A DNA stretch of 64,000 nt from Segetibacter sp. (GTDB lineage: Bacteria > Bacteroidota > Bacteroidia > Chitinophagales > Chitinophagaceae). This document shows, piece after piece, positions 1,005 through 63,512 of this stretch. The notes under the pieces are model-generated. The model had not been told where the DNA came from. It did no database searches and saw only the letters and a list, made by a program, of their open reading frames with translations. Position 1 is the stretch's first letter. Each line of letters starts with the position of its first letter. Made by a program: the position numbers and the translations under genes. The stretch covers positions 7,778 to 71,777 of the forward strand of contig JAQBNN010000224.1 in the NCBI GenBank assembly GCA_028288505.1, in the 5' to 3' direction.

Positions 1005-1065
1005 TTTTTTCTAATACCAGCTTTGGGTTTTCATAGCATCATCGTTGCGTCGCAATCACTTCATA
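1005..1065 (-). repeat. Dispersed intergenic element copy 1 (subtype A')
   Basis: Reverse complement reads GAAGTGATTGCGACGCAACGATGATGCTATGAAAACCCAAAGCTGGTATTAGAAAAAA. Confidence 0.9.
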
Positions 1066-1163
1066 AGCAAATCTTTGGGCAACAGATCGAGTAACAGCAA
1101 TCAGCCTTCCCAAAATAGAATAACTTTCCTACAATTTAGTTTAGCTCAATCTAATAACCATAA

Positions 1164-1221
1164 GTTGAAGGGTGCGACGCAAGTAAAGCTTAATAGTATT
1201 GAAAAAGCCGGCTACCAAAAA
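1164..1221 (+). repeat. Element copy 2 (subtype A)
   Basis: GAAGGGTGCGACGCAAGTAAAGCTTAATAGTATTGAAAAAGCCGGCTACCAAAAA. Confidence 0.85.
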
Positions 1222-1348
1222 CGCTATCGTTCACTAGAAGAATGACAATGAACAGTTGCTTCTTAAAAACTTACCGCACCCACCAACTATAAACTATTCG
1301 CCATTCAGCAAAACACTCTCCCGGCCCAACTTTTGAATATTCAACAGT

Positions 1349-1876
1349 ATGAAATTGCCATCTACATTTATTGAGGGAAGTGACGCATTGAATGCACTAA
1401 TAGAAACACCAAAAGGAAGCCGGAATAAATACGTATACGATGAAGATACCGGGGGCTTTAAGTTGAAAAAAGCGCTACCTGCAGGTATGGTTTTTCCTTT
1501 CGATTTTGGCTTCATTCCATATACTATTGCTGAAGATGGTGACCCACTAGATATTCTTGTACTAACCGATGCGCCTACTTTTCCAGGTTGTATTATTGAG
1601 GTAAATATCATCGGCATCATTAAAGTGCAGCAGGAAAAGAAAGGCAAAAATTTTCGCAACGACCGGGTTATAGGCGTTCAGGTAGATTCAAGACTTTATG
1701 GTTCAGTAGAAAAACTTGCCGACCTTGAAGATGGTTTGCTAAAAGAGATCATTCACTTTTTCGCATCGTACAACCAGGTAAGCGAAGACCAGTTTATTCC
1801 CTTAGGAAATGATGGATCAAAAGAGGCTTTGCGTATAATAAGAGAATCTATTAAAAAGGCTGAAGAAGTTGCTTAA
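1349..1876 (+). CDS. ppa: Inorganic pyrophosphatase (family I)
   Basis: IETPKGSRNKY, PFDFGFIPYTIAEDGDPLDILVL motifs. Confidence 0.9.
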   Translation: MKLPSTFIEGSDALNALIETPKGSRNKYVYDEDTGGFKLKKALPAGMVFPFDFGFIPYTIAEDGDPLDILVLTDAPTFPGCIIEVNIIGIIKVQQEKKGKNFRNDRVIGVQVDSRLYGSVEKLADLEDGLLKEIIHFFASYNQVSEDQFIPLGNDGSKEALRIIRESIKKAEEVA

Positions 1877-1891
1877 TAAAATTTGAGAGAA

Positions 1892-2143
1892 ATGGCACTT
1901 AGAGAAGAGTTGCAAAAAAAGCTGAAGAAATTATACGAACCATCAACAATGGTTGAAATGACATTTAAAGGTTACGACTTGTCTTTTAAAACCGATGAAA
2001 AAGGAAATGCGATCCTCCTATTTATTGGCAAGAAAACAGAACAGGGCAACATTAAAGGCGACCGCTACGGACGCACGTTAAAATACGACCGGGAAGGAAA
2101 TGTAATTAAAGATCATTGGGAGATGAAGGGGAAGGCTACTTAA
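1892..2143 (+). CDS. Hypothetical protein, probably co-transcribed with ppa
   Basis: 83-aa ORF starting 15 nt after the ppa stop and followed by a terminator; ATG at 1892 preferred over TTG at 1883. Confidence 0.65.
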   Translation: MALREELQKKLKKLYEPSTMVEMTFKGYDLSFKTDEKGNAILLFIGKKTEQGNIKGDRYGRTLKYDREGNVIKDHWEMKGKAT

Positions 2144-2164
2144 GTAGGCAAATTTACATAACAA

Positions 2165-2194
2165 AAGGAGCATAAGAATTGCCTTATGCTCCTT
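2165..2194. terminator. Bidirectional hairpin terminator
   Basis: 12-bp perfect stem AAGGAGCATAAG/CTTATGCTCCTT between convergent genes. Confidence 0.75.
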
Positions 2195-2863: not shown

Positions 2864-3030
2864 AGTGTTCGCTTTTAAAGTTTTTGTCCTTTTATGGTAT
2901 TTAAGACAGCGAACAAAGAGCCAGGTTTAGCTGAATAAAGGGCTTTAACAATTGTTTCTTATATGATAATTTATAAGGATTGAAAGAATAAACGTTTAAT
3001 AATTGATCTGTAGTAGAAGCAAATACAACA

Positions 3031-3087
3031 GTACAAGAGTGCGACGCAACAGAGCGTAACAGAAGAACTTCTGCCGGTTACATAAAC
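3031..3087 (+). repeat. Element copy 3 (A)
   Basis: GTACAAGAGTGCGACGCAAC...CTGCCGGTTACATAAAC. Confidence 0.9.
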
Positions 3088-3090
3088 TTT

Positions 3091-3957
3091 TTACTTCTTA
3101 ATAATTTTAATTTCTACTCTCCTATTAACGGTTGCATCTGCTTCGTTTCTCTCCACTTGTATAATCGGATATTTATGACCGAAACCCTTGTAGCTCATTC
3201 GATTCTTTTTAATGCCTTTTTGCACAAGGTAGTCGTAGACAGCCTTGGCCCTGTTAACCGATAGAACAGGTTCACCTGTTTCCTCGTCCACACCGTCAAC
3301 ATCGCCAACCTGGCAACAGATATGGCCCTGTATTTCAATTTCGAGCGTAGGTATTTTCTGCATAACCTCTAATAGCTCCTGCAAGGGCGGATATGCCTGG
3401 GGTAGAAATACATGCCGTCCTCCGTAGAAGTTTATGTTTTTAAGTATAATATTTTCACCTGTTTTTGTTGCCGGATCTTTTATCTCATCAATGAGCTTTT
3501 CCATACGTTGAGGGCGAGATGCCGGAGGAGTAACAGGAGAGGAAGCTGAACTGGTAGTCGGTGCACCTGCCCCTTCGTAAACTGTAACAATTGTAACTCG
3601 CCTGTTAGCCATTCTTGATATTGAATCAAGATCGTTTATCGCTGGCTGGGTTTCACCTAAACCTTTTACAATAGTTATCCTGGCAGAGTCAATACCGCTA
3701 AGCACCATGTAATCTTTTACTGCAGTTGCTCTTTTTATTGAAAGCTGCTGGTTGTATTCGTCTGTTCCTAACTGGTCGGTATGGCCATAGATAGAAACGG
3801 TGGAAACCCTCTTGTTGAAAAAAATCTTGTTGATGGCCAACATAGCATCGGGAGTAAGTTCATGCTTGTTGAAGTCGAAATATATATTGGTCTCTTGCTG
3901 TGCAAAAGCGTTGAATGAAAGGCATACAAAAAGGATAAAAAAGAGTTTCTTCAGCAT
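3091..3957 (-). CDS. OmpA family protein with two OmpA-like peptidoglycan-binding domains
   Basis: Signal peptide; GHTD...NQQLSIKRA...NRRV and GHIC...LSVNRA...NRRVEI motifs. Confidence 0.85.
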   Translation of the reverse strand: MLKKLFFILFVCLSFNAFAQQETNIYFDFNKHELTPDAMLAINKIFFNKRVSTVSIYGHTDQLGTDEYNQQLSIKRATAVKDYMVLSGIDSARITIVKGLGETQPAINDLDSISRMANRRVTIVTVYEGAGAPTTSSASSPVTPPASRPQRMEKLIDEIKDPATKTGENIILKNINFYGGRHVFLPQAYPPLQELLEVMQKIPTLEIEIQGHICCQVGDVDGVDEETGEPVLSVNRAKAVYDYLVQKGIKKNRMSYKGFGHKYPIIQVERNEADATVNRRVEIKIIKK

Positions 3958-4099
3958 CGTGTATTTTTAGGTAAAGACTTTTAAAGGATAATATTAAGGC
4001 ATAAAATTATTGAAACGATTTCACCTAAAGCGTGAGTTGGTCATAACAATTTTAGAGAAGCTTTATTGATAGTGCAGGAAGGCTGAAGTGCGCACAAAA

Positions 4100-4156
4100 G
4101 TACAAGAGTGCGACGCAAGAATGCCTCATAGTAGTATGATAGATTGGTACATAAAA
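4100..4156 (+). repeat. Element copy 4 (A)
   Basis: GTACAAGAGTGCGACGCAAGAATG...GATTGGTACATAAAAA. Confidence 0.9.
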
Positions 4157-4253
4157 AAACGCCAACCTATTTACGTGCAAGACTAAAAAGAAGCGCCTTT
4201 TGCTTGTTTAAATGTGACGAGCGGCATTTACCCCGGGGGACAGATAAAGTATA

Positions 4254-6742: not shown

Positions 6743-6761
6743 TGCCGCTCTCAAAACGATT

Positions 6762-10130: not shown

Positions 10131-10271
10131 AGATATATACTTTTGATAGGCAAAGATAACCCTGTATGATTAGAAGATCGAAAGCTAGTGGGAACACCGG
10201 ATGTTACACTACAGCCTACAAAGAATATGGTAGGTAATTCAAGCACCAGGGATGCCATGAAAAAACCTAAT

Positions 10272-10328
10272 GTACAAGTGAGTGACACAACGATGAAGCC
10301 ATGAAAAACTACAGTCGGCAACAAAAAT
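10272..10328 (+). repeat. Element copy 6 (subtype B)
   Basis: GTACAAGTGAGTGACACAACGATG...GTCGGCAACAAAAAT. Confidence 0.9.
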
Positions 10329-10340
10329 ATTACTCAATTC

Positions 10341-12182: not shown

Positions 12183-12228
12183 ACTTTAATCGTTATACTT
12201 TTTGAAACGTTGATTCTTAAGGAAAGTT

Positions 12229-12284
12229 ATTTTTGTACCCGCATTTGTATTTTTATTAAGCATCGTTGTGTCACTCACTTATAC
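12229..12284 (-). repeat. Element copy 7 (B)
   Basis: Reverse complement reads GTATAAGTGAGTGACACAACGATGCTTAATAAAAATACAAATGCGGGTACAAAAAT. Confidence 0.9.
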
Positions 12285-12570
12285 AGTTGTTCGCTACGCA
12301 CCGCACCTGCTTACACATTAGCAAAACTAATTTGAAACTACTTTGTAACAAGGTGCAGTTCAAACCTGTAAAGATTAAGACCATAAGTGCTTTGACAAAG
12401 GGGGTGATTGCAATATTGATTCCAACTTTACAGAACACTTTTATAACGAATTAGTTAATTCTGCATTTGCAGTGATGAAGAAACTCTGGGTGACTAATAG
12501 TATTGGAAGGCCTGTTATGCAATTATACCTTGCACCCCATGTGCCAGGTGACTGAATAGAATCACCATCT

Positions 12571-12627
12571 GTACAAGAGTGCGACGCAACGATGCTGCTC
12601 CCTAGATTACAGTTTGGCCCAGAAATA
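12571..12627 (+). repeat. Element copy 8 (A)
   Basis: GTACAAGAGTGCGACGCAACGATG...TTTGGCCCAGAAAT. Confidence 0.9.
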
Positions 12628-15354: not shown

Positions 15355-15407
15355 AATAATTTAGGCTAAGCCCATACAAACAAGCAAGCTATTATAAGGC
15401 TGTATTT

Positions 15408-15463
15408 CTTTTTGTGTGGGGCATTTGTTTTCAATTTAGCATCGTTGTGTCACTCACTTGTAC
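15408..15463 (-). repeat. Element copy 9 (B)
   Basis: Reverse complement reads GTACAAGTGAGTGACACAACGATGCTAAATTGAAAACAAATGCCCCACACAAAAAG. Confidence 0.9.
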
Positions 15464-15563
15464 ATTTCGATCTATTGGCAGCAATAAAACTTGTAAGCAT
15501 TAAAAGCTTTAGCCATCATCGGAAAACCAAATCTGCGCATTGCTGTTGCTGGGAGTAACAAAA

Positions 15564-15620
15564 GTACAAGAGTGCGACGCAACGATGATTAATAGTAGCA
15601 CATAGGCCTGCTACATAAAT
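15564..15620 (+). repeat. Element copy 10 (A)
   Basis: GTACAAGAGTGCGACGCAACGATGATTAATAGTAGC...GCCTGCTACATAAAT. Confidence 0.9.
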
Positions 15621-15662
15621 CTGCTTGAAATAACGGCTACCTTAGAAGAAGAACAGCAGTCT

Positions 15663-21750: not shown

Positions 21751-21808
21751 ATTTAGGATACAGAGGGTAGAATATCCATTAAGCATCTTTGCGTCGCATT
21801 TCGTTCAT
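21751..21808 (-). repeat. Element copy 11 (diverged A)
   Basis: Reverse complement reads GAACGAAATGCGACGCAAAGATGCTTAATGG... Confidence 0.7.
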
Positions 21809-21947
21809 CATTTGAAGGGCTATTTATCTTTTACTATGTTTTGTTTTACCAGCATAGATCTTTAATAGCGTACTTTCTACACAACAGTTAAATTTGAATA
21901 GAAAAGGGCACAGTAAATTACAAGCGAGCAGAGTAGAATTACTAAAA

Positions 21948-22005
21948 GCACAAGAGTGCCACGCAACATAAGGGTGAACCTACGCACAATGCCAAGACAA
22001 CAAAA
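21948..22005 (+). repeat. Element copy 12 (diverged A)
   Basis: GCACAAGAGTGCCACGCAAC...AATGCCAAGACAACAAAA. Confidence 0.75.
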
Positions 22006-23918: not shown

Positions 23919-23966
23919 CCATATTTATTAATACCCTTAGGTGAATGGTTGAGTAAAGAATAAAAT

Positions 23967-24023
23967 GTACAAGAGTGCGACGCAAGTAAAGCTTAATAGT
24001 AAGTTTTAGTTGGGTCAATAAAA
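23967..24023 (+). repeat. Element copy 13 (A)
   Basis: GTACAAGAGTGCGACGCAAGTAAAGCTTAATAGT...GTTGGGTCAATAAAAA. Confidence 0.9.
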
Positions 24024-24032
24024 AAACTAGCG

Positions 24033-27111: not shown

Positions 27112-27213
27112 GTCTTAAATTTTAGTCAACAACTCTTTTCATCATGCAAAGAAACATGATTGTGATACAGCGTTATTTCAGCCGAAGAAACCAGGGATGA
27201 TCACTGATTTGCC

Positions 27214-27274
27214 CTTGAAGTGATTGCGACGCAACGATGATGCCATGAAAACCAGTGCTGGTATCAGAAAAAAT
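27214..27274 (+). repeat. Element copy 14 (A')
   Basis: GAAGTGATTGCGACGCAACGATGATGCCATGAAAACCAGTGCTGGTATCAGAAAAAAT. Confidence 0.9.
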
Positions 27275-27278
27275 ATTT

Positions 27279-27335
27279 CTTTTTTGACCCTAGCATTTAA
27301 TCTTTACTCATCATCGTTGTGTCACTCACTTGTAC
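27279..27335 (-). repeat. Element copy 15 (B)
   Basis: Reverse complement reads GTACAAGTGAGTGACACAACGATGATGAGTAAAGATTAAATGCTAGGGTCAAAAAAG. Confidence 0.9.
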
Positions 27336-27386
27336 TATAAAAACTTTATTCAGCAAGAAGCTGAAAAGGCGTATTGAAACATCTAG

Positions 27387-29761: not shown

Positions 29762-29840
29762 GACGATTATTTTGGTGAAACTCTTTCATAATTCGTACCA
29801 AGCGAATTTTTAGGAAGAATACTAAAATTAGTTGGAGTAT

Positions 29841-29895
29841 AGTTTGTTACAGGCATAGAAACTGAATTCAACATCGTTGTGTCACTCACTTGTAC
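29841..29895 (-). repeat. Element copy 16 (B), left of Uma2
   Basis: Reverse complement reads GTACAAGTGAGTGACACAACGATGTTGAATTCAGTTTCTATGCCTGTAACAAAC. Confidence 0.9.
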
Positions 29896-34203: not shown

Positions 34204-36096
34204 ATGAGTGTTGTTGCCCAAATAAAGATCGCTGCTTCAAAAGTTATAAATGAACTATACCATGTTTCTCTTACCAAAAACGAAGTGCTGGTAAATGCTA
34301 CTAAACCAGAATTTGAAGGCGAGTATACTATTGTTTTATTCTCATTTGTAAAGCAATTAAAGAAATCGCCAGAGGCTTTAGGAAATGAAATTGGAAAGTT
34401 GCTGATCGAAAATAATCCTGGTTTATTAACCGGTTATAATGTAATTAAAGGTTTCTTAAACTTACTAATAGCCGAAGATTACTGGACGAACTTTTTGCAC
34501 GAGCAATTTTCAAACAGAGGTTTTGGCAGCAGTCCTAAAAATGGTAAGAGAGTGATGGTTGAATACTCCTCGCCTAATACCAACAAGCCTTTACACCTCG
34601 GGCATCTAAGAAATAATTTCCTTGGATGGAGTACGGGTCAAATCCTGGAGATGAACGGTTATGACGTAATTAAAACCTGCATCGTAAACGACCGAGGAAT
34701 TCATATTTGCAAAAGTATGATTGCATGGCAAAAACATGCCAACGGCGCAACACCAGAAAGTACCGGCAAAAAGGGCGATCATTTAGTAGGAGATTTTTAT
34801 GTACGGTTTGAAGAGGATTTGAAAGCTGAAGCAGCATACCTGTTAGACCAATTATTAAGCAGGCAGCTAGAAGGATTTACTGAAGCAGAAGAAACCAAAA
34901 TAATGGGTTTACTTGATGCTATGGACCATGCAAGCCATGCCCAGGATAAAGAAAAATACAACGGTATTCAAAATGAACTAAATGAAATAGCTCGGAACAA
35001 CACGCCTATTATGAAAGAAGCGAAACAAATGCTTCTGAAGTGGGAACAAGGCGATGAAGAAGTATTGAGCTTGTGGCGTAAAATGAATGCCTGGGTGTAC
35101 AAAGGTTTCGAGGAAACTTACAAACGGATCGGCAGCGATTTCCAAAAGACATACTACGAAAGCGATCTCTATCTTTTAGGAAAAGACATTGTAGAAGAGG
35201 GTTTACAAAAGGGTGTTCTATTTAAAAAGGAAGACGGAAGTGTTTGGATAGACCTTACAGCAGAAGGTCTTGATGAAAAGCTCGTTCTACGTAAGGACGG
35301 AACTTCTGTATATATTACGCAAGACCTTGGTTTAGCCCAATTAAAATTCGAAGAATTTAAGACAGACCAAAGTATTTATGTAATTGCCGACGAGCAGAAC
35401 TACCACATGAAGGTGCTTAAACTAATCATGCAAAAACTAGGAGCTCCTTATGCCGAAGGTATATTTCATTTAAGTTATGGAATGGTTGAACTGCCAAGTG
35501 GTAAAATGAAAAGCCGTGAGGGAACCGTGGTAGATGCAGATAACCTGGTAGATGAAATGCTGGCAATTGCCGAGGAAAAAACAAAAGAATTAGGTAAGGT
35601 TGACGACTTTGATGAACAAGAATTAAAAACGCTTTACAACACAATTGGCCTTGGCGCATTAAAATTCTTCCTGCTTAGGGTCGATCCAAAAAAGAGGATA
35701 ATATTTAACCCTGCTGAAAGTATCGAACTCCAGGGTTTCACTGGTCCTTTCATACAATATACGCATGCACGTATTAAAAGTATCTTACGAAAAGAGTACC
35801 CAAATGGAAGTGCTTTAACCGGTAATTTGTTGCCGGCAGAAAAAGATGTTTTAGTGCATTTAGAAACCTTTCCATTGGTGGTACAAGAAGCAGCAACAGA
35901 GCTTGATCCTTCAAAAATTGCTATCTATATTTTCAATTTGGCCCAGCTCTTTAATTCGTTTTATACCAAACATTCAATTGCCAACGCGGAGAGTGCGGAA
36001 AAGAAAGAGCTACGATTACAACTGGCGCAACTAACTGCACAAGCAATAAAAAATGGGATGTATTTACTCGGAGTTGCAGTGCCAGAAAGAATGTAA
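34204..36096 (+). CDS. argS: Arginyl-tRNA synthetase
   Basis: EYSSPNTNKPLHLGH (HIGH motif), KMKSREG, GPFIQYTHARI, C-terminal VPERM. Confidence 0.97.
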   Translation: MSVVAQIKIAASKVINELYHVSLTKNEVLVNATKPEFEGEYTIVLFSFVKQLKKSPEALGNEIGKLLIENNPGLLTGYNVIKGFLNLLIAEDYWTNFLHEQFSNRGFGSSPKNGKRVMVEYSSPNTNKPLHLGHLRNNFLGWSTGQILEMNGYDVIKTCIVNDRGIHICKSMIAWQKHANGATPESTGKKGDHLVGDFYVRFEEDLKAEAAYLLDQLLSRQLEGFTEAEETKIMGLLDAMDHASHAQDKEKYNGIQNELNEIARNNTPIMKEAKQMLLKWEQGDEEVLSLWRKMNAWVYKGFEETYKRIGSDFQKTYYESDLYLLGKDIVEEGLQKGVLFKKEDGSVWIDLTAEGLDEKLVLRKDGTSVYITQDLGLAQLKFEEFKTDQSIYVIADEQNYHMKVLKLIMQKLGAPYAEGIFHLSYGMVELPSGKMKSREGTVVDADNLVDEMLAIAEEKTKELGKVDDFDEQELKTLYNTIGLGALKFFLLRVDPKKRIIFNPAESIELQGFTGPFIQYTHARIKSILRKEYPNGSALTGNLLPAEKDVLVHLETFPLVVQEAATELDPSKIAIYIFNLAQLFNSFYTKHSIANAESAEKKELRLQLAQLTAQAIKNGMYLLGVAVPERM

Positions 36097-36154
36097 ATTT
36101 TTCGGGAACCCGCATTTGTATTTCATGCGTCATCGTTGTGTCACTCACTTGTAC
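36097..36154 (-). repeat. Element copy 20 (B); abuts the argS stop and lies left of the Uma2 pseudogene
   Basis: Reverse complement reads GTACAAGTGAGTGACACAACGATGACGCATGAAATACAAATGCGGGTTCCCGAAAAAT. Confidence 0.9.
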
Positions 36155-36247
36155 ATTTAATTCTAATGGCAGCTGGTCGCAGTCCTTTTACCTGGTTACT
36201 AAAGCTCAGCTTGCTTTAGGTTCTTGCTAATATTAGTAACTTTAATT

Positions 36248-36833: not shown

Positions 36834-36863
36834 GGTTTTTTTTCGGTGACTAAAGTGCTACAA

Positions 36864-36920
36864 GTACAAGAGTGCGACGCAACAATGATGAAGTATTTCT
36901 AATGCTGGAACACAAAAAAT
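36864..36920 (+). repeat. Element copy 21 (A), right of the Uma2 pseudogene
   Basis: GTACAAGAGTGCGACGCAACAATGATG...AATGCTGGAACACAAAAAAT. Confidence 0.9.
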
Positions 36921-36930
36921 ATTATCAATA

Positions 36931-40036: not shown

Positions 40037-40402
40037 AGTAGTATTTGTAAGCGATGAAATAACATTGGTAATCTTCTTTACAATATTGCCAGCACCAGTC
40101 CCGTCTAAAGGCTAATTAAACGGGTTACCTGGCTTTTTTACTTTGTATTATCAATTAGTAAGGCCCGGAAAACGAAACTCTTTCACTTTTATCACTTCCC
40201 GCGGTATCACTTTTTGTCTCTTTGTTGTCCATTCCAACAGAATTCTTTATTACGCTACCTGCAGAAGCTTTTTTCTTTCGGGCATAAGAATATCGGTTTT
40301 TATAAAGATACTGAATGAACTTAACTCTTGCTCAGTATCCAGGTCAATGAAAAGTATTCAAGGAATTGAAAGATAAAATGCAGGCCAACACTGCTTAAAA
40401 AG

Positions 40403-40460
40403 ATTTTTGTTACCAGCAACAGGTCAAAGATTATCCTTTCGTTGCGTCGCACTCTTGTAC
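40403..40460 (-). repeat. Element copy 22 (A)
   Basis: Reverse complement reads GTACAAGAGTGCGACGCAACGAAAGG...TTGCTGGTAACAAAAAT. Confidence 0.9.
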
Positions 40461-40538
40461 AGTTAAAGCTTTATTCAACAAATAAAACACATTAATTCAA
40501 ATACCTATCATGCCCTCCCGTTTTTTAGACGACAAACA

Positions 40539-43794: not shown

Positions 43795-43980
43795 AGTTAA
43801 GCAATCGTTTGTTAGTAATGTGTAAGTTTTACATGAACTAAAGTAATACAAAAAAACATCCTACGAGGGGATGTTGGAAAACAATCAGATATAATAATAG
43901 TTTTTATAGCATTAGCAAAAGTGTAACTAATATTTTGCTGTGTAAGTATAATTAGCCTGAAGCATAATAGTAGCACAACC

Positions 43981-44040
43981 GATGAAAGGATTGCGACGCA
44001 ACAATGATGCTATGTAATACAAATGCCGGTACCAAAAAAT
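43981..44040 (+). repeat. Element copy 23 (A'); abuts the glgC stop
   Basis: GAAAGGATTGCGACGCAACAATGATGCTATGTAATACAAATGCCGGTACCAAAAAAT. Confidence 0.9.
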
Positions 44041-44041
44041 T

Positions 44042-45328
44042 TTACTGTATTACAAAACCATCAGGTAAAATAGCATTCTTTTTTACTACAACTATGTCGT
44101 CTTTAATGGTATATAAAGCGTTGTCTGTTTCGGCCATTCCTGTGCCGCCAACAATTCTTACATCGTTGCCGATTCTGCAGTTTTTATCAACGATGGCGTG
44201 CTTAATATAGCAACGTTCGCCAATGCCAATCCTAGGGATTCCATTTCTAAGGTTACTTTCCATTTGCTCTAAAGTCTCAAACGTGTCGTTACCCATTAAA
44301 TAGCTGCTGACAACGGTGGTTCCAAAACCTATACGTGACCTTATACCAATTACACTATTTTCTATGCGGCTCGCATTAATGAACGAACCTTCTGCAATCA
44401 TGGTGCGTTCTAATGTTGTTCCACTTATTTTAGCAGGTGGAAGCATACGCGGCCTGGTAAAAATGGTGTGTATATTGTCGTACAAATTAAATGGTGGCAA
44501 CTCGTTTGTAAGCGCAAGATTAGCTTCGAAAAACGAAGAAATCTGCCCAATATCTTCCCAGTAACCTTCGTATTGATAACTGTAAACTTTATGTGTTCCA
44601 ATTGATTTTGGAATGATGTCTTTACCAAAATCTTTATCCTCGGGATAAACTTTTAATAACAGGTCAATTAATAGCTGCCTGTTGAAAATATAAATACCCA
44701 TAGAAGCAAGGTATTCCTTACCAATGTTCTTCATAGCTGGCCCTGTATCGCTAGTCCAATCTCCTAAAAGATCTTGCGAAGGTTTTTCTATAAACGATGT
44801 TACAAAATGGTTTTCATCCGTTTTTAAAATACCGAAGTCAGAAGCTTCCTTACCCGCTACAGGAATAGTAGCAAGTGTAATATCTGCGCCACTGCTTGCG
44901 TGTTCTGAAACCATTGCTTCGAAGTCCATTTGGTAAAGCTGGTCGCCACTAAGAATGAGAATATATTCGAATTCGAAGTTGAAAATATGTTTGAAGGATT
45001 GGCGTACAGCATCGGCAGTTCCCTGGAACCAGTTAGAGTTATCGGGCGTTTGTTCTGCTGCCAGTATATCTACAAATCCTTTGCTGAAGCCGCTAAAGTT
45101 GTATGTGTTTTTTATATGCCTGTTAAGTGAAGCAGAGTTGTATTGAGTAAGCACAAACATCCGGTTGATATTGCTGTTAATACAGTTACTAATAGGGATG
45201 TCTACTAAACGGTATTTACCCGCAATAGGCACAGCTGGTTTGCTGCGGCTAGCCGTTAAAGGGTGCAGCCTTGTACCAGCACCCCCACCCAAAATAACGG
45301 CCAATGCGGACTTCTGATAATTGAGCAT
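44042..45328 (-). CDS. glgC: Glucose-1-phosphate adenylyltransferase
   Basis: ILGGGAGTRLHPLT, KPAVPIAGKYRL, WFQGTADAV, LASMGIY, YWEDIG. Confidence 0.96.
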   Translation of the reverse strand: MLNYQKSALAVILGGGAGTRLHPLTASRSKPAVPIAGKYRLVDIPISNCINSNINRMFVLTQYNSASLNRHIKNTYNFSGFSKGFVDILAAEQTPDNSNWFQGTADAVRQSFKHIFNFEFEYILILSGDQLYQMDFEAMVSEHASSGADITLATIPVAGKEASDFGILKTDENHFVTSFIEKPSQDLLGDWTSDTGPAMKNIGKEYLASMGIYIFNRQLLIDLLLKVYPEDKDFGKDIIPKSIGTHKVYSYQYEGYWEDIGQISSFFEANLALTNELPPFNLYDNIHTIFTRPRMLPPAKISGTTLERTMIAEGSFINASRIENSVIGIRSRIGFGTTVVSSYLMGNDTFETLEQMESNLRNGIPRIGIGERCYIKHAIVDKNCRIGNDVRIVGGTGMAETDNALYTIKDDIVVVKKNAILPDGFVIQ

Positions 45329-45407
45329 AGTTTATTCTTTTAAATGTTACTATTATAAATCCTCTTGTCTTCTGATTTTACTTTTATGCACGCCATCTTA
45401 GTGAGTT

Positions 45408-45462
45408 GGTTGTGGTACGAGCATTCTTTTTTCTTCAACTTCGTTGTGTCACTCACTTGTAC
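45408..45462 (-). repeat. Element copy 24 (B)
   Basis: Reverse complement reads GTACAAGTGAGTGACACAACGAAG...AATGCTCGTACCAC. Confidence 0.85.
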
Positions 45463-45518
45463 CACATCCCTCTATTCTTCTTTGCCGCCCTAACTAAAAC
45501 ACTTAATATTCGTTCCAC

Positions 45519-50158: not shown

Positions 50159-50218
50159 TATATAATATTAAACTTATATCCAATCTTATACACACAAACA
50201 AAGTGATTGTGAACAGTT

Positions 50219-50276
50219 TTGTTTTGGACCCAATCTTATTAACACTACTTTACATCGTTGCGTCGCACTCTTCAGC
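50219..50276 (-). repeat. Element copy 25 (A)
   Basis: Reverse complement reads GAAGAGTGCGACGCAACGATGTAAAGTAGTG...ATTGGGTCCAAAAC. Confidence 0.85.
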
Positions 50277-50376
50277 TTGTGTAATTTTATTGGGCGCATT
50301 CAAAAGATTGCTGTTCCTTATTAGCATAACGCTACAAATATTAATATAACTATCTAAATACTTTATTAAACCCTAT

Positions 50377-51387: not shown

Positions 51388-51423
51388 TGTTTTGGTATTT
51401 AAGAGCTGCGTGAAGATCTAAAA

Positions 51424-51478
51424 GTACAAGTGAGTGACACAACGATGTTGAAAGTAGTTTATTAGTTGGTAACCAAAT
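51424..51478 (+). repeat. Element copy 26 (B)
   Basis: GTACAAGTGAGTGACACAACGATG...AGTTGGTAACCAAAT. Confidence 0.9.
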
Positions 51479-51483
51479 CTTCC

Positions 51484-51525
51484 TATAAAAAGAATGGCTG
51501 CCCGAGGACAGCCATTCTTTTTATA
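51484..51525 (-). terminator. lipA terminator overlapping the stop codon
   Basis: 17-bp stem TATAAAAAGAATGGCTG/CAGCCATTCTTTTTATA. Confidence 0.8.
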
Positions 51526-52456: not shown

Positions 52457-52589
52457 TACGCTACCGCTTTGTTAATTGAAAAATTTTGATGGACAGGTTG
52501 TTTTGGTTGTTACTCTCGCTGTAAATACACTAACGGTAATTGCGGGAAAGGAACAAGTTGCTTAAGAAGCGCAGCGTAAAGAACCCTTA

Positions 52590-52646
52590 GTACAAGAGTG
52601 CGACGCAACGGAAGCTAAATAAGCATTTACAGCCGGGGCCAAAAAT
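52590..52646 (+). repeat. Element copy 27 (A)
   Basis: GTACAAGAGTGCGACGCAACGGAAG...CAGCCGGGGCCAAAAAT. Confidence 0.9.
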
Positions 52647-52649
52647 ACA

Positions 52650-53450
52650 CTACTTTCTTTTACCGAAGACAATGGCGGCATAAGCATTAAAAAACAATTG
52701 CTTTTCCTTATTTAAAAGTAGTATGGGCATTTTTTGAGAGTAGAACTCGGCACCTAATCCAACTTCGATTGCACTTACCACTTCGTTGTAGCGACCGTAA
52801 TCGAAACGAAGGGCGGTTTTTGCAAACCCACCAGGAACAAATTTAATTTCGTTAAACCCTTTGCCAAACCCTGAAGCACCAATAATGTCGGTAGCGGACA
52901 AGAAAACAGCATTGTTGTTGTTGTATTTAATTTGCTCCTGTTCGTTTCGTGCATTATTTACAGTTATGTAGTATGGTTTTAATAACCCTGCACTAAAACC
53001 TCCGCCGTAAAGCGCTGAAACAGCAACGCCATTTTTATTACCTTTTACGCCCAGCAAACGCTGCTGCCCGTAGCCAAGTTTAGTAAAATAAAAATTATTG
53101 ATTTTGCCGTAAATAAATGGGTTGCCAACTGCAAAACCCAAAACTCCCCTCGATAATTTGTCTTCTTTAGGGTGCTTGCGCTCACCAATTTCTAGGCTGT
53201 AAAGTGATGTTTTTACTGGAGTCTTCAATATGCCGAGTTCGTAAAAAGCACTGTACCCATCGCTGTAAAGCCTTACGCCAAAGGCGTTTTGCTTATGAAA
53301 AATCATTGCTCCTTCTTCTTCCTGCTTTTGCAATAATTGTATTTTTTCCTTCCTATCTTCTTTCTTTTGGTTCCGGGTTTCTTTGCGTTGCTGCGAAAAA
53401 GCTGAGGTAGCAACCAATGCGCAAAACGTTACAAAAACGACTTTCTTCAC
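52650..53450 (-). CDS. Exported hypothetical protein, possibly an outer-membrane beta-barrel
   Basis: Signal peptide from GTG at 53450 (MKKVVF...AFSQ); alternating beta-strand pattern and an aromatic-rich C-terminus. Confidence 0.7.
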   Translation of the reverse strand: MKKVVFVTFCALVATSAFSQQRKETRNQKKEDRKEKIQLLQKQEEEGAMIFHKQNAFGVRLYSDGYSAFYELGILKTPVKTSLYSLEIGERKHPKEDKLSRGVLGFAVGNPFIYGKINNFYFTKLGYGQQRLLGVKGNKNGVAVSALYGGGFSAGLLKPYYITVNNARNEQEQIKYNNNNAVFLSATDIIGASGFGKGFNEIKFVPGGFAKTALRFDYGRYNEVVSAIEVGLGAEFYSQKMPILLLNKEKQLFFNAYAAIVFGKRK

Positions 53451-53494: not shown

Positions 53495-53899
53495 ATGACA
53501 GCACAGATAATATATAAAGGAAACTTAAGAACATCGGCCACACACTTGCAAAGCGGAACGGAGATAGAAACGGATGCGCCGGTTGACAACCAAGGCCAAG
53601 GTGAACGCTTTTCGCCCACTGATTTGGTAGCTACTGCTCTCGGAAATTGTATGCTCACCATTATGGGTATTAAAGCAAGGGATTTGAATGTTGACCTAAG
53701 CGGAACGACTGTAGAGGTTACTAAAGTAATGGTAGCCGAGCCCAGACGGATAGGCGAAATAAAAGTGACTTTCACATTCCCAGAAGGTTTTGAGGCCGAT
53801 GATAAACAAAAAACCATTTTGGAAAGAGCTGCAATGACGTGTCCTGTTATTGAAAGCCTGCACCCAAACATTAAGAAAGATGTAACTTTTAACTGGTAG
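53495..53899 (+). CDS. OsmC/Ohr family protein
   Basis: TDAP.DN.G.G..FSPTDL.ATALGNC and TCPV conserved cysteines. Confidence 0.88.
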   Translation: MTAQIIYKGNLRTSATHLQSGTEIETDAPVDNQGQGERFSPTDLVATALGNCMLTIMGIKARDLNVDLSGTTVEVTKVMVAEPRRIGEIKVTFTFPEGFEADDKQKTILERAAMTCPVIESLHPNIKKDVTFNW

Positions 53900-53958
53900 T
53901 TTTTTGGGTTTCCAGCGGTGGTTTTTCATAGCATCATCGTTGTGTCACTCACTTGTAC
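53900..53958 (-). repeat. Element copy 28 (B); abuts the OsmC stop
   Basis: Reverse complement reads GTACAAGTGAGTGACACAACGATGATGCTATGAAAAACCACCGCTGGAAACCCAAAAAA. Confidence 0.9.
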
Positions 53959-54050
53959 TATTGGTTCACTTTTCAGCCGAGCCTGGAATGTGCCGGCACC
54001 AGAACCGTTTATGTTGCCCTAGACTATGGCTCGCACTCTTTATTCTGCGT

Positions 54051-55367: not shown

Positions 55368-55436
55368 ACACTGATGATTAATGAAACAACGTCATTAATA
55401 TAAGTAATGTTAGGAGCGACGAATAAAGATATAAAA

Positions 55437-55492
55437 GTACAAGTGAGTGACACAACGATGATGCTATGAAGACTACTGTACGTTCCCAAAAT
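55437..55492 (+). repeat. Element copy 29 (B)
   Basis: GTACAAGTGAGTGACACAACGATGATGCTATGAAG...GTACGTTCCCAAAAT. Confidence 0.9.
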
Positions 55493-55594
55493 AAATTAGG
55501 AAGGACTAGAGATTCGCCGCTACTTAAAACTTCTACAAATAATATTGCTGAATAATTTCATATTAAATTAGAATAATTTTAAGTAACGAGCCTT

Positions 55595-58342: not shown

Positions 58343-58458
58343 GATGCCACAATTTTGCTGCAAAAGTATCGATTAACAACCTTAAAACTCAAGAGAGATA
58401 GAACTATGAATTAAAAGAGCCTTTTTTTAGCGCCGAAACTTTGAAATTGTAAGTAAGA

Positions 58459-58514
58459 ATTATTCTACCAGCAGAAAGTTTACATAGCATCATTGTTGTG
58501 TCACTCACTTATAC
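58459..58514 (-). repeat. Element copy 30 (B)
   Basis: Reverse complement reads GTATAAGTGAGTGACACAACAATGATGCTATGTAAACTTTCTGCTGGTAGAAT. Confidence 0.9.
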
Positions 58515-58551
58515 TGTTTTTTAGGTAGCAGCAATAAAAGCACTAGTATTC

Positions 58552-60247: not shown

Positions 60248-60445
60248 AAAGTTTCGTTTTGATTAATGGGATGCTTCAGGGTGCTAACAGATACCCTTGT
60301 GTGAAGGAATAATCTCGACACCTGTAGAAGCTGAAAAATTTTGCTATTTGCTGTTATGCTGTAATATTGCAGCAGTTCATTCTACATTTTTAAAAGCCGG
60401 GGTATCGTATAAACACATCGTCGTTTGCCGAATGTTGGGCAAAAA

Positions 60446-60505
60446 GTACAAGAGTGCGACGCAAGAGAAGCTACATCGTAGCAATGTTGATCGGCTCAAT
60501 AAAAT
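60446..60505 (+). repeat. Element copy 31 (A)
   Basis: GTACAAGAGTGCGACGCAAGAGAAG...GATCGGCTCAATAAAAT. Confidence 0.88.
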
Positions 60506-60618
60506 ACCTAAAACTTTGTTGAGTACATATATAATATAGTGTAGTATTGAATTGTTAGAAATTTACTGTTACCTTGAACCTGACCGGACCTAGAACCGGC
60601 TAAACCCATAGATCCAGG

Positions 60619-63189
60619 ATGAGTAAGAATTTATTAATAGTTGAGTCTCCGGCAAAAGCCCGAACGATAGAAAAAATACTTGGCAGCGACTTCGAGGTAA
60701 AGAGCTGTTACGGCCACATTCGAGATCTTGAGAAAGACGACATGGGGATCGACTTGAACAACCACTACAAACCACGATATAAGGTTCCTGACGAAAAACA
60801 AAAGGTTGTAAAGGAACTGAAACAGCTCGCAAAAAAAGCCAAAGAGGTTTGGCTGGCCTCCGATGAGGACCGCGAGGGAGAAAGCATTAGCTGGCACCTT
60901 GCGGAAGAATTAGGCCTTGACCCAAAAGTGACCAAGCGCATTGTTTTCCACGAAATAACAGCACCGGCTATTAAAAAAGCGGTACAGAATCCACGTACTA
61001 TAAATATGGACCTGGTGAATGCTCAACAGGCCCGCCGAGTACTCGACAGGCTCGTTGGCTTTGAACTTAGCCCGGTTTTGTGGAGAAAGATTGGAATGCA
61101 GGGAGGACTTAGCGCCGGCAGGGTACAAAGTGTTGCAGTGAGGCTGATTGTGGAGAGGGAAAGAGAGATCAACAACTTTAAGGCGGAAAGCAATTACAGG
61201 ATTGAAGCATTTTTTATTGCAAAAGATATAAATGGCAGGCCGGTAACATTTAAAGCTGAAAGCCCAACGAGGATCACAGTTCAGGAATCAGCACAGCAAT
61301 TTTTAGAAAGTTGTAGAGGGGCTGATTATACTGTGGTAGATATTACGGTAAAACCAGCTAAGCGATCACCCGCTGCACCTTTTACAACATCAACACTACA
61401 GCAGGAAGCAAGTCGTAAATTGGGTTATGGTGTTAGCAAAACAATGTTGCTTGCCCAAAAGCTATACGAAAGCGGTAAGATCACTTATATGCGTACGGAT
61501 AGCATTAACCTGAGCGAAACGGCTATGGACGGTATTACAAAAGAAATCCGCGCTAGCTACGGCGAAAAATACCTTCAGCCAAGAAAGTACAAGAACAAGA
61601 ACGAAAATGCGCAGGAAGCCCACGAGGCTATCCGTCCAACTTACATGGATAAGCATACGGACACTGACGAGGAAGTGCGCCGTTTATACGAACTGATCTG
61701 GAAGCGTACCATCGCTTCACAGATGAGTGATGCAGAATTTGAGAAGACGACAGCTAAGATCAATATTTCTACCAACAAAGAAAACCTTAATGCACTGGGC
61801 GAGGTTTTGAAGTTTGATGGCTTCTTAAAAGTATATAACGAAGGCAAGGATGAAGAAGAGGATGAAGACGGAGAAGATGTACTTCCACCTTTGGCGGTAA
61901 ATCAGAAACTGGAGTTTAAGGAAATGAGGGCTTCTGAAAGATTCACGAGACCAGCTCCTAGATACACCGAAGCATCGCTGGTTAAGAAATTAGAAGAACT
62001 CGGCATTGGACGGCCGTCGACTTATGCGCCTACGATTACTACAATTATAAAGCGTAATTATGTAGAGAAGCGCGACAAGGAAGGCGTAAAACGTAACCTG
62101 AACGTGCTCCGCTTAAAAAATGACAATAACCTTGAGAAAACGATTGTAACTGAAAATACAGGTGCTGAGAAATCTAAACTATTTCCTACAGATCTGGGAA
62201 TGGTGGTGACTGACTTTTTAAAATTGCATTTTCAAAAGGTGATGGATTATGGCTTTACCGCAAAGATTGAAGAAGAGTTTGATGAAATCGCCGGTGGTAA
62301 GATGAAATGGGACACCATGATCGACTCCTTTTACAAACCTTTCCATAGCAATATTGAACTTACCCTTGAAACTGCAGAAAGAGCCAAAGGTGAAAGGGAA
62401 TTAGGGATGGATCCGGTAACTGGCAAGAAGGTTATTGCACGGATGGGCCGTTATGGTCCAATGGTGCAGATAGGGCATGCGGAGGAAGAAGAAAAGCCAC
62501 GATTTGCCAAATTAAAGCCAACACAAAGCATCGAAACAATCTCTTTCGACGAGGCAATGGACCTTTTTAAAATGCCTTTAACTTTGGGTGAATACGAGGG
62601 AAAAGAAGTAGCTGTAAACATGGGCCGCTTCGGCCCTTACGTACGCTGGGGTGAAGACTTTGTTTCCTTGCCACGAGGTGAAGACCCTATGACGGTTGAC
62701 ATGGAAAGAGCGATAGCCTTAATTAACGAAAAGCAAACGGCCGATGCACCCATTGCTGTGGTTGAAGATAAGCCGGTAACAAAAGGCAAAGGAAGATTTG
62801 GCCCGTTTATAAAATGGAACGAACTATTTATAAATGTGCCTCGTGCTTACAATTATGACACGCTTACTCAAAAAGAGTGTGAAGAGCTGATTGAAAAGAA
62901 AGTTCATAAAGAAGCCAACAGGTTTATACAACAATGGCCAAGCGAAAAGATAGCAATTGAAAATGGTCGCTGGGGCCCATTTATCCGCTTCGGAAAAAAG
63001 ATGTTGAAATTATTAAACAAAGGAGAAAAGCAAAAGTATACACCAGAAGAACTTGCACAAATTCCTTTAGATGAAGTAAAAAAAATGATAGAGACACAGG
63101 AACCTGGTGCATTTGCAAAAAAAACACCAGCAAAAAAAGCAGCAGCAAAGAAAGCAGCAGCAAAGAAAGTAAAAAAGCAAGTTAGTTAA
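60619..63189 (+). CDS. topA: DNA topoisomerase I with a Lys/Ala-rich C-terminal tail
   Basis: LIVESPAKA, ASDEDREGE, SAGRVQS, ITYMRTDS, GIGRPSTYA. Confidence 0.97.
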   Translation: MSKNLLIVESPAKARTIEKILGSDFEVKSCYGHIRDLEKDDMGIDLNNHYKPRYKVPDEKQKVVKELKQLAKKAKEVWLASDEDREGESISWHLAEELGLDPKVTKRIVFHEITAPAIKKAVQNPRTINMDLVNAQQARRVLDRLVGFELSPVLWRKIGMQGGLSAGRVQSVAVRLIVEREREINNFKAESNYRIEAFFIAKDINGRPVTFKAESPTRITVQESAQQFLESCRGADYTVVDITVKPAKRSPAAPFTTSTLQQEASRKLGYGVSKTMLLAQKLYESGKITYMRTDSINLSETAMDGITKEIRASYGEKYLQPRKYKNKNENAQEAHEAIRPTYMDKHTDTDEEVRRLYELIWKRTIASQMSDAEFEKTTAKINISTNKENLNALGEVLKFDGFLKVYNEGKDEEEDEDGEDVLPPLAVNQKLEFKEMRASERFTRPAPRYTEASLVKKLEELGIGRPSTYAPTITTIIKRNYVEKRDKEGVKRNLNVLRLKNDNNLEKTIVTENTGAEKSKLFPTDLGMVVTDFLKLHFQKVMDYGFTAKIEEEFDEIAGGKMKWDTMIDSFYKPFHSNIELTLETAERAKGERELGMDPVTGKKVIARMGRYGPMVQIGHAEEEEKPRFAKLKPTQSIETISFDEAMDLFKMPLTLGEYEGKEVAVNMGRFGPYVRWGEDFVSLPRGEDPMTVDMERAIALINEKQTADAPIAVVEDKPVTKGKGRFGPFIKWNELFINVPRAYNYDTLTQKECEELIEKKVHKEANRFIQQWPSEKIAIENGRWGPFIRFGKKMLKLLNKGEKQKYTPEELAQIPLDEVKKMIETQEPGAFAKKTPAKKAAAKKAAAKKVKKQVS

Positions 63190-63209
63190 TCTAAAAAGAT
63201 AGCGTTTAT

Positions 63210-63243
63210 AAAAAGACCTGTTGTAATTACATCAGGTCTTTTT
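63210..63243 (+). terminator. topA intrinsic terminator
   Basis: AAAAAGACCTG...CAGGTCTTTTT. Confidence 0.8.
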
Positions 63244-63269
63244 ATTTATTCTCACTTTATAAATTAGTC

Positions 63270-63327
63270 ATTTTTCCAACCATAGTGCACACTACTATTA
63301 AGCTTTAGTTGCGTCGCACTCGTGTAC
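63270..63327 (-). repeat. Element copy 32 (A)
   Basis: Reverse complement reads GTACACGAGTGCGACGCAACTAAAGCTTAATAGTAG...TGGTTGGAAAAAT. Confidence 0.88.
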
Positions 63328-63454
63328 TTTTTGTTCTCCATTCATCAGAGTGATAACTGGTTGTCGGGCTTGTAAACTTCAATTATGCTTTTCTCTTCTT
63401 GGTTTTCATTTTACATTGTGCCTTTTGCATATGCCCGCTCACTCCTGATTAACT

Positions 63455-63512
63455 GTACAAGAGTGCAACGTAACATGCGCTAATAGTAGCAAAAATAATC
63501 GCTAAACAAAAT
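63455..63512 (+). repeat. Element copy 33 (diverged A)
   Basis: GTACAAGAGTGCAACGTAACATGCGCTAATAGTAGC...CGCTAAACAAAAT. Confidence 0.78.

Follow-up and report, generated by a model that had tools for sequence, protein, structure and literature searches.

The question raised by this locus is why neighbouring copies of a short repeat, dispersed between the genes of a bacterial chromosome, so regularly lie on opposite strands. The stretch of DNA analysed here, referred to throughout as the window, comprises 64,000 nucleotides (positions 7778-71777 of contig JAQBNN010000224.1, or C176) of a 4.07-Mb, 307-contig assembly with 39.7% GC from a soil-type bacterium, Segetibacter sp., and harbors 32 copies of a polar element of approximately 78 bp. 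Across the genome as a whole, 1,170 of 1,444 neighbouring pairs of copies (81%; p = 7e-132) switch strand, and controls that preserve the strands of the surrounding genes do not reproduce this behavior.

The element is unstructured, and conservation among its copies spans about -38 to +38 around an anchor position, defined as the last A in the ..CAA of the core. A copy is read here in the orientation GCTGAATAAAG, approximately 10 nt, AAAGTACAAG, the core, CAACGATG, a variable stretch and GCTGGTA(A/C)CAAAAA, with the GCTG end termed the ‘tail’ and the CAAAAA end the ‘head’, and with plus-strand and minus-strand copies written as ‘>’ and ‘<’, respectively. Nearly all of the information in a conservation profile of the copies lies within a core of 24-25 bp, whose 24-bp form, GTACAAG-N-G-N-G-Y-GAC-R-CAACGATG, is common to all three subfamilies (A, B and C) and carries a small dyad at its middle; in A and B the dyad reads G-Y-G-A-C-R-C, and the core of subtype C is fully palindromic (TTGCGACGCAA). 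Genome-wide copies were collected by nhmmer, with profile hidden Markov models built from exact-core copies. The search returned a total of 1,744 copies (687 A, 766 B and 291 C; 886 on the plus strand and 858 on the minus strand), which account for about 3% of the genome, supply its most frequent 12-mers and are intergenic in 98% of cases, that is, outside of open reading frames (ORFs) of at least 90 aa. Genes were called with a crude ORF picker (ORFs of at least 90 aa, greedy selection, 83% coding) rather than a trained gene finder, and neighbouring pairs that span contig ends were lost to the fragmentation of the assembly.

Within the window, the A/B core GTACAAGNGNGYGACRCAAC has 27 matches when as many as 3 mismatches are allowed, whereas shuffled sequence would give 0.08; with three copies of type C (anchors 1045-, 27234+ and 44001+) and two degenerate ones (21789- and 33589+), the count comes to 32, one short of the 33 given in an earlier note on this DNA. 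Strand is switched in 23 of their 31 neighbouring pairs (binomial p = 0.011; the 25 of 32 tallied in that note would give p = 0.002), and the alternation that it had described is real. The doublets that it had called head-to-head are tail-to-tail (‘<>’) in the notation used here, and all of them are present as ‘<’ followed by ‘>’: at anchors 1045-/1182+, 12266-/12589+ and 15445-/15582+, at 21789-/21966+ (both copies degenerate) and at 63309-/63473+ (right copy degenerate). A longer pair at 32880-/33589+, likewise with a degenerate right copy, has the same arrangement.

Genome-wide, where two neighbouring copies share a single intergenic region (342 pairs), 302 are arranged as ‘<>’, 38 as ‘><’ and only 2 lie on the same strand. 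Over successively greater distances the switching fraction runs 0.99 (below 300 bp), 1.00, 0.91, 0.86, 0.82, 0.77 and 0.73, and continues through 0.65, 0.64 and 0.60 to 0.59 at 7-10 kb; a parallel next copy is almost never found less than 600 bp away, and its avoidance fades to chance over about 5-10 kb. Ordered by the number of genes enclosed (zero, one, two, three or four), the fraction of direct pairs, obtained by arithmetic on the counts, is 0.9%, 15%, 29%, 28% and 42%. Alternation is just as strong between singletons in adjoining intergenic regions (257 inverted versus 31 direct) as within doublets, and inverted doublets are simply the closest antiparallel neighbours. Intervals of the form ‘> genes <’ and ‘< genes >’ are both enriched, and when counts are normalised for gene direction, the pairs (‘>’,‘<’) and (‘<’,‘>’) occur 186 and 175 times, and the pairs (‘<’,‘<’) and (‘>’,‘>’) 52 and 13 times. 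Copies two, three and four steps apart differ in strand in 35%, 59% and 44% of cases, respectively; the alternation behaves as predicted for a first-order chain with 0.81 switching, and not for independent two-ended units of the kind that the earlier note had envisaged.

A null that keeps the strands of the flanking genes yields 0.497 +/- 0.013 switching, against the 0.810 observed, and a null that also keeps which gene is nearer yields 0.523 +/- 0.013, with no simulation above 0.56; the alternation survives this control for gene orientation. Pairs located in different intergenic regions switch in 75% of cases, where 0.50-0.51 is expected. Around genes with a copy on both sides, the heads point inward 155 times and the tails 156 times, with only 59 mixed arrangements (odds ratio 46, p = 7e-46), and when each flanking region contains a single copy (288 genes) the corresponding numbers are 103, 154 and 31. 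Transcription units behave similarly, with 267 head-head pairs (202 expected), 193 tail-tail pairs (103 expected) and 38 and 84 of the two mixed kinds (106 and 195 expected), and the probability of finding a head at the 3' end of a unit is 0.56 if its 5' end has a head, 0.48 if its 5' end is empty and 0.18 if its 5' end has a tail. The gene-aware nulls, together with this conditional contrast, demonstrate that the rule operates between copies, and not between copies and genes.

The orientation rule is independent of gene strand, gene-end docking, subfamily, sequence identity and present core integrity. Switching depends neither on subfamily nor on the length of the identical run shared by neighbours, the identity of neighbours is no higher for inverted than for direct pairs, and the fraction of direct pairs is 0.22-0.23 whatever the decay class of the core. 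The decay of a copy does not weaken its adherence to the rule, which argues for a historical pattern, fixed at the establishment of copies and passed on since, with no present-day upkeep; an ongoing constraint that needs intact cores was rejected on the same evidence. The rule is also not confined to this genome, since 68 of 83 neighbouring pairs in 112 eight-kilobase stretches of other Chitinophagaceae genomes switch strand (p = 3e-9). In a genome of another genus (G053), all 8 of the listed pairs less than 600 bp apart are ‘<>’, and 55 of 89 listed neighbouring pairs switch when only exact-core copies are counted, a tally that for the present genome gives 61%.

The explanation that we favor, reached by elimination and given a probability of roughly 40%, is that a core-binding protein handles neighbouring copies pairwise and in cis, and tolerates only those that are antiparallel. 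On this view, the conserved core would be bound by a protein that engages copies two at a time, with cis communication between neighbours achieved through DNA looping or through tracking; installation or retention would be limited to antiparallel neighbours, and parallel ones would either fail to become established or be eliminated early on. Counted in favor of a protein site are the concentration of information within 24-25 bp, the approximately 97% identity of the cores and the retention of orthologous copies at dnaK and glgC. The absence of single-strand structure, the absence of an Rfam family and the occurrence of the core in 31 of 61 genera are also in keeping with this explanation.

Several observations weigh against this explanation. 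A different cause, itself alternating along the chromosome, may underlie the pattern. No helical phasing of doublet spacing was found, which argues against rigid looping at short range. Units enclosed by antiparallel copies are co-oriented with their outside neighbours at 0.57-0.60, against 0.62-0.65 for units between parallel copies; they are therefore not strand-randomised, and frequent recombination between copies is not evident. A search for contigs encoding an identical DnaK found none, the nearest metagenome relatives having only 92-93% DnaK identity. Finally, the gene-based statistics rest on crude gene calls.

Among the rivals, the one that survives best holds that recombination between parallel neighbours deletes the DNA between them, whereas antiparallel neighbours, at most inverting it, accumulate; homologous recombination, slippage and an element-specific recombinase were all considered as variants. 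The near absence of same-strand pairs from gene-free spacers (2 of 342) and the decay of avoidance with distance and with the number of enclosed genes are both in keeping with such a purge, and removing direct pairs row by row reproduces the head-at-5' row of the transcription-unit table. The tail-tail pairs of that table, however, exceed what a purge alone predicts (0.42 versus approximately 0.32, by our own arithmetic). The indifference of the rule to subfamily and to identical-run length rules out homologous recombination or slippage, and the equal direct fractions of intact and decayed cores are a further difficulty. Of 65 genes singly enclosed by direct pairs, the 30 that were profiled are ordinary accessory genes, for example TonB-dependent receptors, glycosidases and dehydrogenases, plus a single tRNA synthetase, so that the surviving direct pairs are not enriched for indispensable DNA; a purge that spares parallel pairs around such DNA only was rejected on this sample. 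On balance, deletion is an unlikely cause of the pattern.

A more specific form of explanation, improbable in our estimation, treats the elements as polar binding sites of a chromosome-organising system specific to Chitinophagaceae, with a PD-(D/E)XK protein of the Uma2 family as a possible recogniser. Neighbouring sites would communicate by tracking or by loops, with only antiparallel ones compatible, and would delimit gene-sized domains in which short divergent pairs act as boundaries and long convergent pairs surround genes; such a system, if real, would be a bacterial counterpart to the convergent/divergent rule of eukaryotic insulators.

Uma2 (PF05685, DUF820) nuclease genes are unusually often flanked by copies, always with tails inward, and Uma2 is the only gene family seen with copies preferentially beside it. 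An intact Uma2 gene (29979-30566, plus strand) and a Uma2 pseudogene (approximately 36248-36830, plus strand) each have a tail-facing copy on both sides; a distant Uma2-like paralogue on contig C23 has one on one side only, and two other weak Uma2-like matches in the genome have no copy nearby. By our own tally, 13 copies lie no more than 250 nt from a Uma2 gene and all of them turn their tails to it, against a general tail-facing fraction of approximately 0.4 (loci L128, L129, L131, L139, L140, L144 and L150-L152). In relatives, some of them element-poor, 98 kb of Uma2 loci contain 11 copies, and 98 kb of loci encoding transposases of the REP-associated tyrosine transposase (RAYT) type, from a similar set of congeneric genomes, contain 2. 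Two genomes with dozens of copies (G008 and G017) have no detectable Uma2, which indicates that Uma2 is not required for copies to persist. Uma2 may be the cognate protein of the element, or Uma2 genes may be selfish genes that merely land in doublet spacers; a search of a paper library found no reported function for Uma2/DUF820.

The possibility that the tail-to-tail doublet is itself mobile through a Y1 (RAYT) transposase, with singletons as decayed doublets, corresponds to the REPIN, a paired form of the repetitive extragenic palindromic (REP) sequence. A ‘<>’ unit is unchanged by inversion, so alternation would follow automatically, and a palindromic unit would alternate perfectly with no interaction between copies. 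The statistics of the doublets do match those of REP dimers, and the two Y1_Tnp (IS200/RAYT-like) relics of the genome both lie between ‘<’ and ‘>’ copies. These relics are pseudogenes as assembled, with frameshifts or stops, although their HUH motif (SNHIHFLV) is intact and a YFHNNP motif is present. They are flanked, however, by a CAAGGTG..CACCTTG hairpin of their own that occurs only twice in the genome, directly beside the C56 relic, and it is the same kind of hairpin, and not a copy of type A, B or C, that flanks RAYT orthologues in relatives; intact orthologues with similar hairpins are found in G007, G014, G006 and G001, and 27 of 29 related Y1-transposase loci in relatives, including all of the close orthologues, have no A, B or C copy. 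RAYT was accordingly rejected as the cognate enzyme.

The copies themselves also speak against a REPIN origin. No single-copy hairpin was found when nine copies or strands were folded as DNA (z of -0.69 to +1.01 against shuffles); the tail (GCTGAATAAAG..) and head (..GCTGGTAACAAAAA) are not mutual inverted repeats, and their ends are unpaired in the folds; and the folds of doublets show no advantage over those of shuffles (z of -1.15 and -0.61). The spacers of doublets are unrelated to one another, where the earlier note had called those of the window not obviously related, and no two copies are at least 95% identical over 80 nt, even though cores are approximately 97% identical; the alignment between a copy and its closest sequence relative has a median length of just 41 nt. 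If doublets decayed independently, 50% of singletons on either side of a gene should be mixed, where 31 of 288 are, and intergenic regions with one copy are approximately 150 bp shorter than those with two, which indicates that singletons are not simply decayed doublets. The birth of doublets followed by independent decay was rejected because singletons alternate too. The REPIN-like character that the earlier note had assigned to the doublets is thereby reduced to their REP-dimer-like statistics, and we consider a REPIN origin to be quite improbable.

Highly improbable, in turn, is an account in which copies do not interact at all, but in which each head turns toward whichever gene end is nearest or most attractive, and the alternation of gene ends along the chromosome is passed on to the copies. 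A weaker rule of this nature does exist separately: in 74% of copies the head lies closer to a gene than the tail does, heads face a 3' gene end 989 times and a 5' end 652 times, and the left and right copies of an intergenic region point away from each other. There is, in addition, a sharp limit of 38 nt between the core and a stop codon, which corresponds to a head abutting the stop. Copies are found where one transcription unit gives way to another: immediately behind a stop codon, next to a terminator or upstream of a promoter. Where a head faces the start of a gene, the interval from head to start codon contains promoter-like TAnnTTTG motifs, which places such copies upstream of the promoter and not in the 5' untranslated region (UTR). 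Against this account, simulations that respect genes give 0.52 switching versus 0.81, and 0.51 versus 0.75 for pairs in different intergenic regions, and an attractor model fitted to the marginal frequencies is (by our own arithmetic) approximately two-fold over on mixed pairs and two-fold under on tail-tail pairs. The fall in the probability of a 3' head from 0.48 behind an empty 5' end to 0.18 behind a 5' tail is a contrast that gene-attraction models cannot produce, and models of competitive docking likewise failed to reproduce the 3x3 transcription-unit table.

The proposal of the earlier note itself, that A and B are different ends of cassette-like units with variable cargo that are gained, lost or inverted as wholes, is scarcely credible in light of the genome-wide counts. 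Pairs with B on the left and A on the right do recur in the window, where B is on the minus strand in 9 of 13 cases and A on the plus strand in 11 of 15, and both of the full Uma2 loci and both RAYT relics lie inside ‘<>’ pairs. The strand bias of the window reflects the predominance of minus-strand genes there, and it vanishes genome-wide (B, 395 plus and 371 minus; A, 360 plus and 327 minus). Subtypes assort almost randomly both in doublets (AA 45, AB 48, BA 59 and BB 44, plus combinations with C; 91 of the same type versus 111.5 expected) and across genes (212 of the same type versus 193 expected); the tendency that remains is a weak one, with the heads of A facing 3' gene ends in 64.5% of cases and those of B in 56.8% (p = 0.015). 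The chain-like form of the alternation also speaks against units with two ends. As for cargo, the enclosed genes are ordinary or single-copy housekeeping genes of the chromosome, with no paralogue enrichment and no codon-usage anomaly, and the order of genes at glgC is kept in relatives that lack the elements, with copies inserted singly. Mobile cargo was rejected for want of any paralogue enrichment or codon-usage anomaly.

Four further candidates were rejected: (i) frequent inversion between antiparallel copies, because enclosed genes are not strand-randomised and the glgC unit is uninverted relative to two relatives; (ii) a local duplicative origin with a neighbour as the parent copy, because copies share a contig with their closest sequence relative 11 times, where 8.8 are expected, and neighbours of the same subtype are not enriched; (iii) an RNA or DNA stem between neighbours, because subtypes do not match, inverted pairs are no more identical than direct ones and the folds of doublets are not significant; and (iv) polar terminator or promoter models, because the arrangement that they predict, co-oriented arrays within clusters of co-directional genes, is the rarest one observed.

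The family is old and Chitinophagaceae-wide. The core was found in 31 of 61 sampled genera of Chitinophagaceae, at 1 to 922 occurrences per genome and with approximately equal forward and reverse counts, while a reversed control pattern had zero matches in the same scan. The exact 24-mer occurs in other genomes of Ferruginibacter, Segetibacter, Flavihumibacter, Ilyomonas and Polluticaenibacter. Several other genera carry A, B and an intermediate type together, and the intermediate, GTACAAGTGTGCGACGCAAC, is common in some of them. Positions 12 (Y) and 16 (R) of GTACAAGNGNGYGACRCAAC co-vary, as GCGACGC or GTGACAC, and mixed forms of the dyad such as GTGACGC are rare among the listed matches from many genera. 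No Rfam family reached its gathering threshold in the window; in a 1.8-kb stretch with two copies no match with E of 1 or below overlapped a copy, the sole match (E = 0.65) being a chance microRNA match within a gene. None of 72,556 plasmids and 50,697 phages contained a match to the element. A known RNA family and a plasmid or phage origin were rejected for lack of such matches.

Comparison with well-characterized repeats and sites places the element near, but not within, several of them. REPs are hairpins of 20-40 bp with stems of 5-13 bp and a GTAG or CGTC tag, and in the GTAG- and CGTC-tagged superfamilies inverted dimers are common and head-to-tail dimers are absent (Di Nocera et al. 2013, PMC3733652). 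The present element resembles REPs and bacterial interspersed mosaic elements (BIMEs) in its hundreds to thousands of short intergenic copies, found mostly after coding regions and between convergent or co-directional genes, in its common inverted and nearly absent head-to-tail dimers, in the coexistence of several subtypes with heterodimers that are not disfavoured, and in a copy number that varies widely between related species. It differs in being polar, approximately 78 bp in length and devoid of a usable stem, having only a dyad of 7-11 bp. The BIMEs of E. coli belong to the same comparison, and we know of no description, for REPs, of alternation across whole genes at kilobase distances. 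The REPIN-RAYT system (Bertels & Rainey 2011, PMC3116915) is matched in its short-spacer inverted doublets, in long vertical persistence and in the presence of a Y1 transposase relic between two inverted copies; it is not matched in that the doublet here is not a conserved replicating unit, forms no hairpin and is not the cognate repeat of the relics. The element is, in sum, statistically REP/BIME-like, but is not a REPIN in the strict sense.

Functional comparisons can also be drawn with sites that are read by proteins. The pdif (XerC/D) modules of Acinetobacter plasmids pass between replicons and are bounded by 28-bp sites, each made up of two 11-bp arms plus a 6-bp spacer; these too are asymmetric protein-binding sites that alternate strictly and bracket genes, but the core of the present element lacks the two-arm and spacer architecture, is chromosomal and brackets ordinary core genes. 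The attC sites of integrons are co-oriented, unlike the antiparallel neighbours described here, in whose core no folded attC architecture is visible. Type III restriction enzymes need inversely oriented sites, and in vertebrates the anchors of CTCF loops follow a convergent/divergent rule; by functional analogy only, these share with the element polar sites whose relative orientation matters over kilobases, with short divergent pairs at boundaries and long convergent pairs around enclosed DNA. They differ in scale, which here is that of genes. Miniature inverted-repeat transposable elements (MITEs) have terminal inverted repeats, which the copies lack, and no transposase with the ends of the element was found. 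DNA uptake sequences and uptake signal sequences (DUS/USS) are similar in density and in equal use of the strands, but have cores of 9-12 bp, as compared with a unit of approximately 78 bp that has a shared ancestry over its whole length and is 98% intergenic.

Some individual sites can be followed across species. The B copy between Uma2 and the dnaK terminator is kept in the present genome and in two relatives and is decayed in a third (Table 1). A C copy after the glgC stop codon is found, in the same subtype and the same place, in G015 and G016, and is absent in G014, G007 and G017, where the same terminator comes almost immediately after the stop codon; the flanks of the retained copies at both dnaK and glgC are unalignable across species. 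The hairpin of the glgC terminator (AAACATCC..GGATGTTTTTTT) is conserved across the genus (window 43800-44041 compared with L117, L118 and L121). Lying between stop and terminator, the glgC copy is transcribed there within the 3' UTR; the dnaK copy lies beyond its terminator, and the position of copies relative to terminators is therefore not fixed. Filled and empty glgC sites indicate an insertion between the stop codon and the terminator, in relatives too diverged to read a target-site duplication. Relatives without elements have the same order of genes around glgC, which argues for the insertion of copies one at a time at gene boundaries, and the glgC unit has the same orientation as in G014 and G007. 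The genes enclosed by copies include EF-Ts, AccD, TrxB (thioredoxin reductase) and KdsA, as we take them to be from our own reading of the sequences, with no profile search.

Near the Uma2 gene, the sequence GC(T)TGGTACGAATT (window 29762-29790) lies immediately before the start codon of a minus-strand gene at 29318-29761, and its conservation extends to G015 and G035. Similar to the head box GCTGGTAC, it may be what is left of a much older copy. A hairpin-forming insert of approximately 89 nt (GGAACACGGAT...ATCCGTGTTC, at 30575-30663) separates the Uma2 stop codon from the tail of the element in the present genome, unlike in G007 and G015, where the tail follows the stop codon within a few bases. 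The abutting heads of the ‘><’ pair at 27196-27355 (C, then B) lie between a malQ-like gene and a CBM20 gene.

Table 1. Copies of the element in the window, in order of position, and the two transposase relics located elsewhere in the genome.
Feature	Position	Strand	Basis	Remarks
C (core TTGCGACGCAA)	1005..1083	-	nhmmer, 70.6 bits	left half of doublet 1005-1225
A	1152..1225	+	nhmmer, core match	3 core mismatches; right half of doublet 1005-1225
A	3015..3095	+	nhmmer, core match	head abuts stop codon of ORF 3091-3957(-)
A	4089..4160	+	nhmmer, core match	
B	10260..10336	+	nhmmer, core match	head abuts stop of 10341-12182(-)
B	12220..12292	-	nhmmer, core match	left half of doublet 12220-12627
A	12557..12627	+	nhmmer, core match	right half of doublet 12220-12627
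B	15404..15483	-	nhmmer, core match	left half of doublet 15404-15622
A	15545..15622	+	nhmmer, core match	right half of doublet 15404-15622
A-like, degenerate (ATGCGACGCAA)	21751..21827	-	below nhmmer threshold	left half of doublet
A, degenerate	21928..22005	+	core match	2 core mismatches; right half of doublet
A	23948..24028	+	nhmmer, core match	3' of malQ-like gene 24073-27111(-)
C	27196..27279	+	nhmmer	partner in rare head-to-head ‘><’ with copy 27279..27355
B	27279..27355	-	core match	right partner of ‘><’ pair 27196-27355
B	29838..29914	-	nhmmer	tail towards Uma2 gene; site empty in G007, G015 and G035
B	30669..30750	+	nhmmer	between Uma2 and dnaK terminator; orthologous copy in G007 and G015, decayed in G035
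B	32847..32910	-	nhmmer, core match	upstream of dnaK
Degenerate copy (GAGCGTCGCAAGAATG...ACAAATGCTCG)	33551..33628	+	read by eye, not found by nhmmer	
B	36092..36173	-	nhmmer	3' of argS; tail towards Uma2 pseudogene
A	36845..36925	+	nhmmer	tail towards Uma2 pseudogene
A	40396..40480	-	nhmmer, core match	
C	43967..44047	+	nhmmer	between glgC stop and its terminator
B	45402..45465	-	nhmmer	upstream of glgC; undetected at glgC locus in 10 scanned relatives
A	50214..50294	-	nhmmer, core match	3 core mismatches
B	51405..51486	+	nhmmer, core match	
A	52576..52656	+	nhmmer, core match	
B	53896..53977	-	nhmmer, core match	
B	55420..55497	+	nhmmer, core match	
B	58453..58524	-	nhmmer, core match	
A	60426..60511	+	nhmmer, core match	upstream of topA
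A	63271..63347	-	nhmmer, core match	3' of topA; left half of doublet 63271-63512
A, degenerate	63436..63512	+	core match	2 core mismatches; right half of doublet 63271-63512
Y1_Tnp (IS200/RAYT-like) relic	G000:C56:2637-3655			outside window; own flanking CAAGGTG..CACCTTG hairpins
Y1_Tnp (IS200/RAYT-like) relic	C167:3493-4647			outside window

Few parts of bacterial genomes are as poorly understood as their dispersed intergenic repeats, which include REPs, BIMEs, enterobacterial repetitive intergenic consensus (ERIC) sequences and MITEs. A quantitative rule of orientation between neighbours, which extends across whole genes and is unexplained by the orientation of those genes, is a hallmark of sites that enzymes of recombination, looping or tracking read pairwise along the DNA. 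The system offers several handles: a 24-bp core with which to pull down a protein, thousands of natural antiparallel and parallel pairs, and a candidate in Uma2/DUF820. If the cause is architectural, the rule would represent a new principle of bacterial chromosome organisation; if it is instead a property of a mobile element, the family would represent a new class of non-hairpin, REP-like elements in Bacteroidota.

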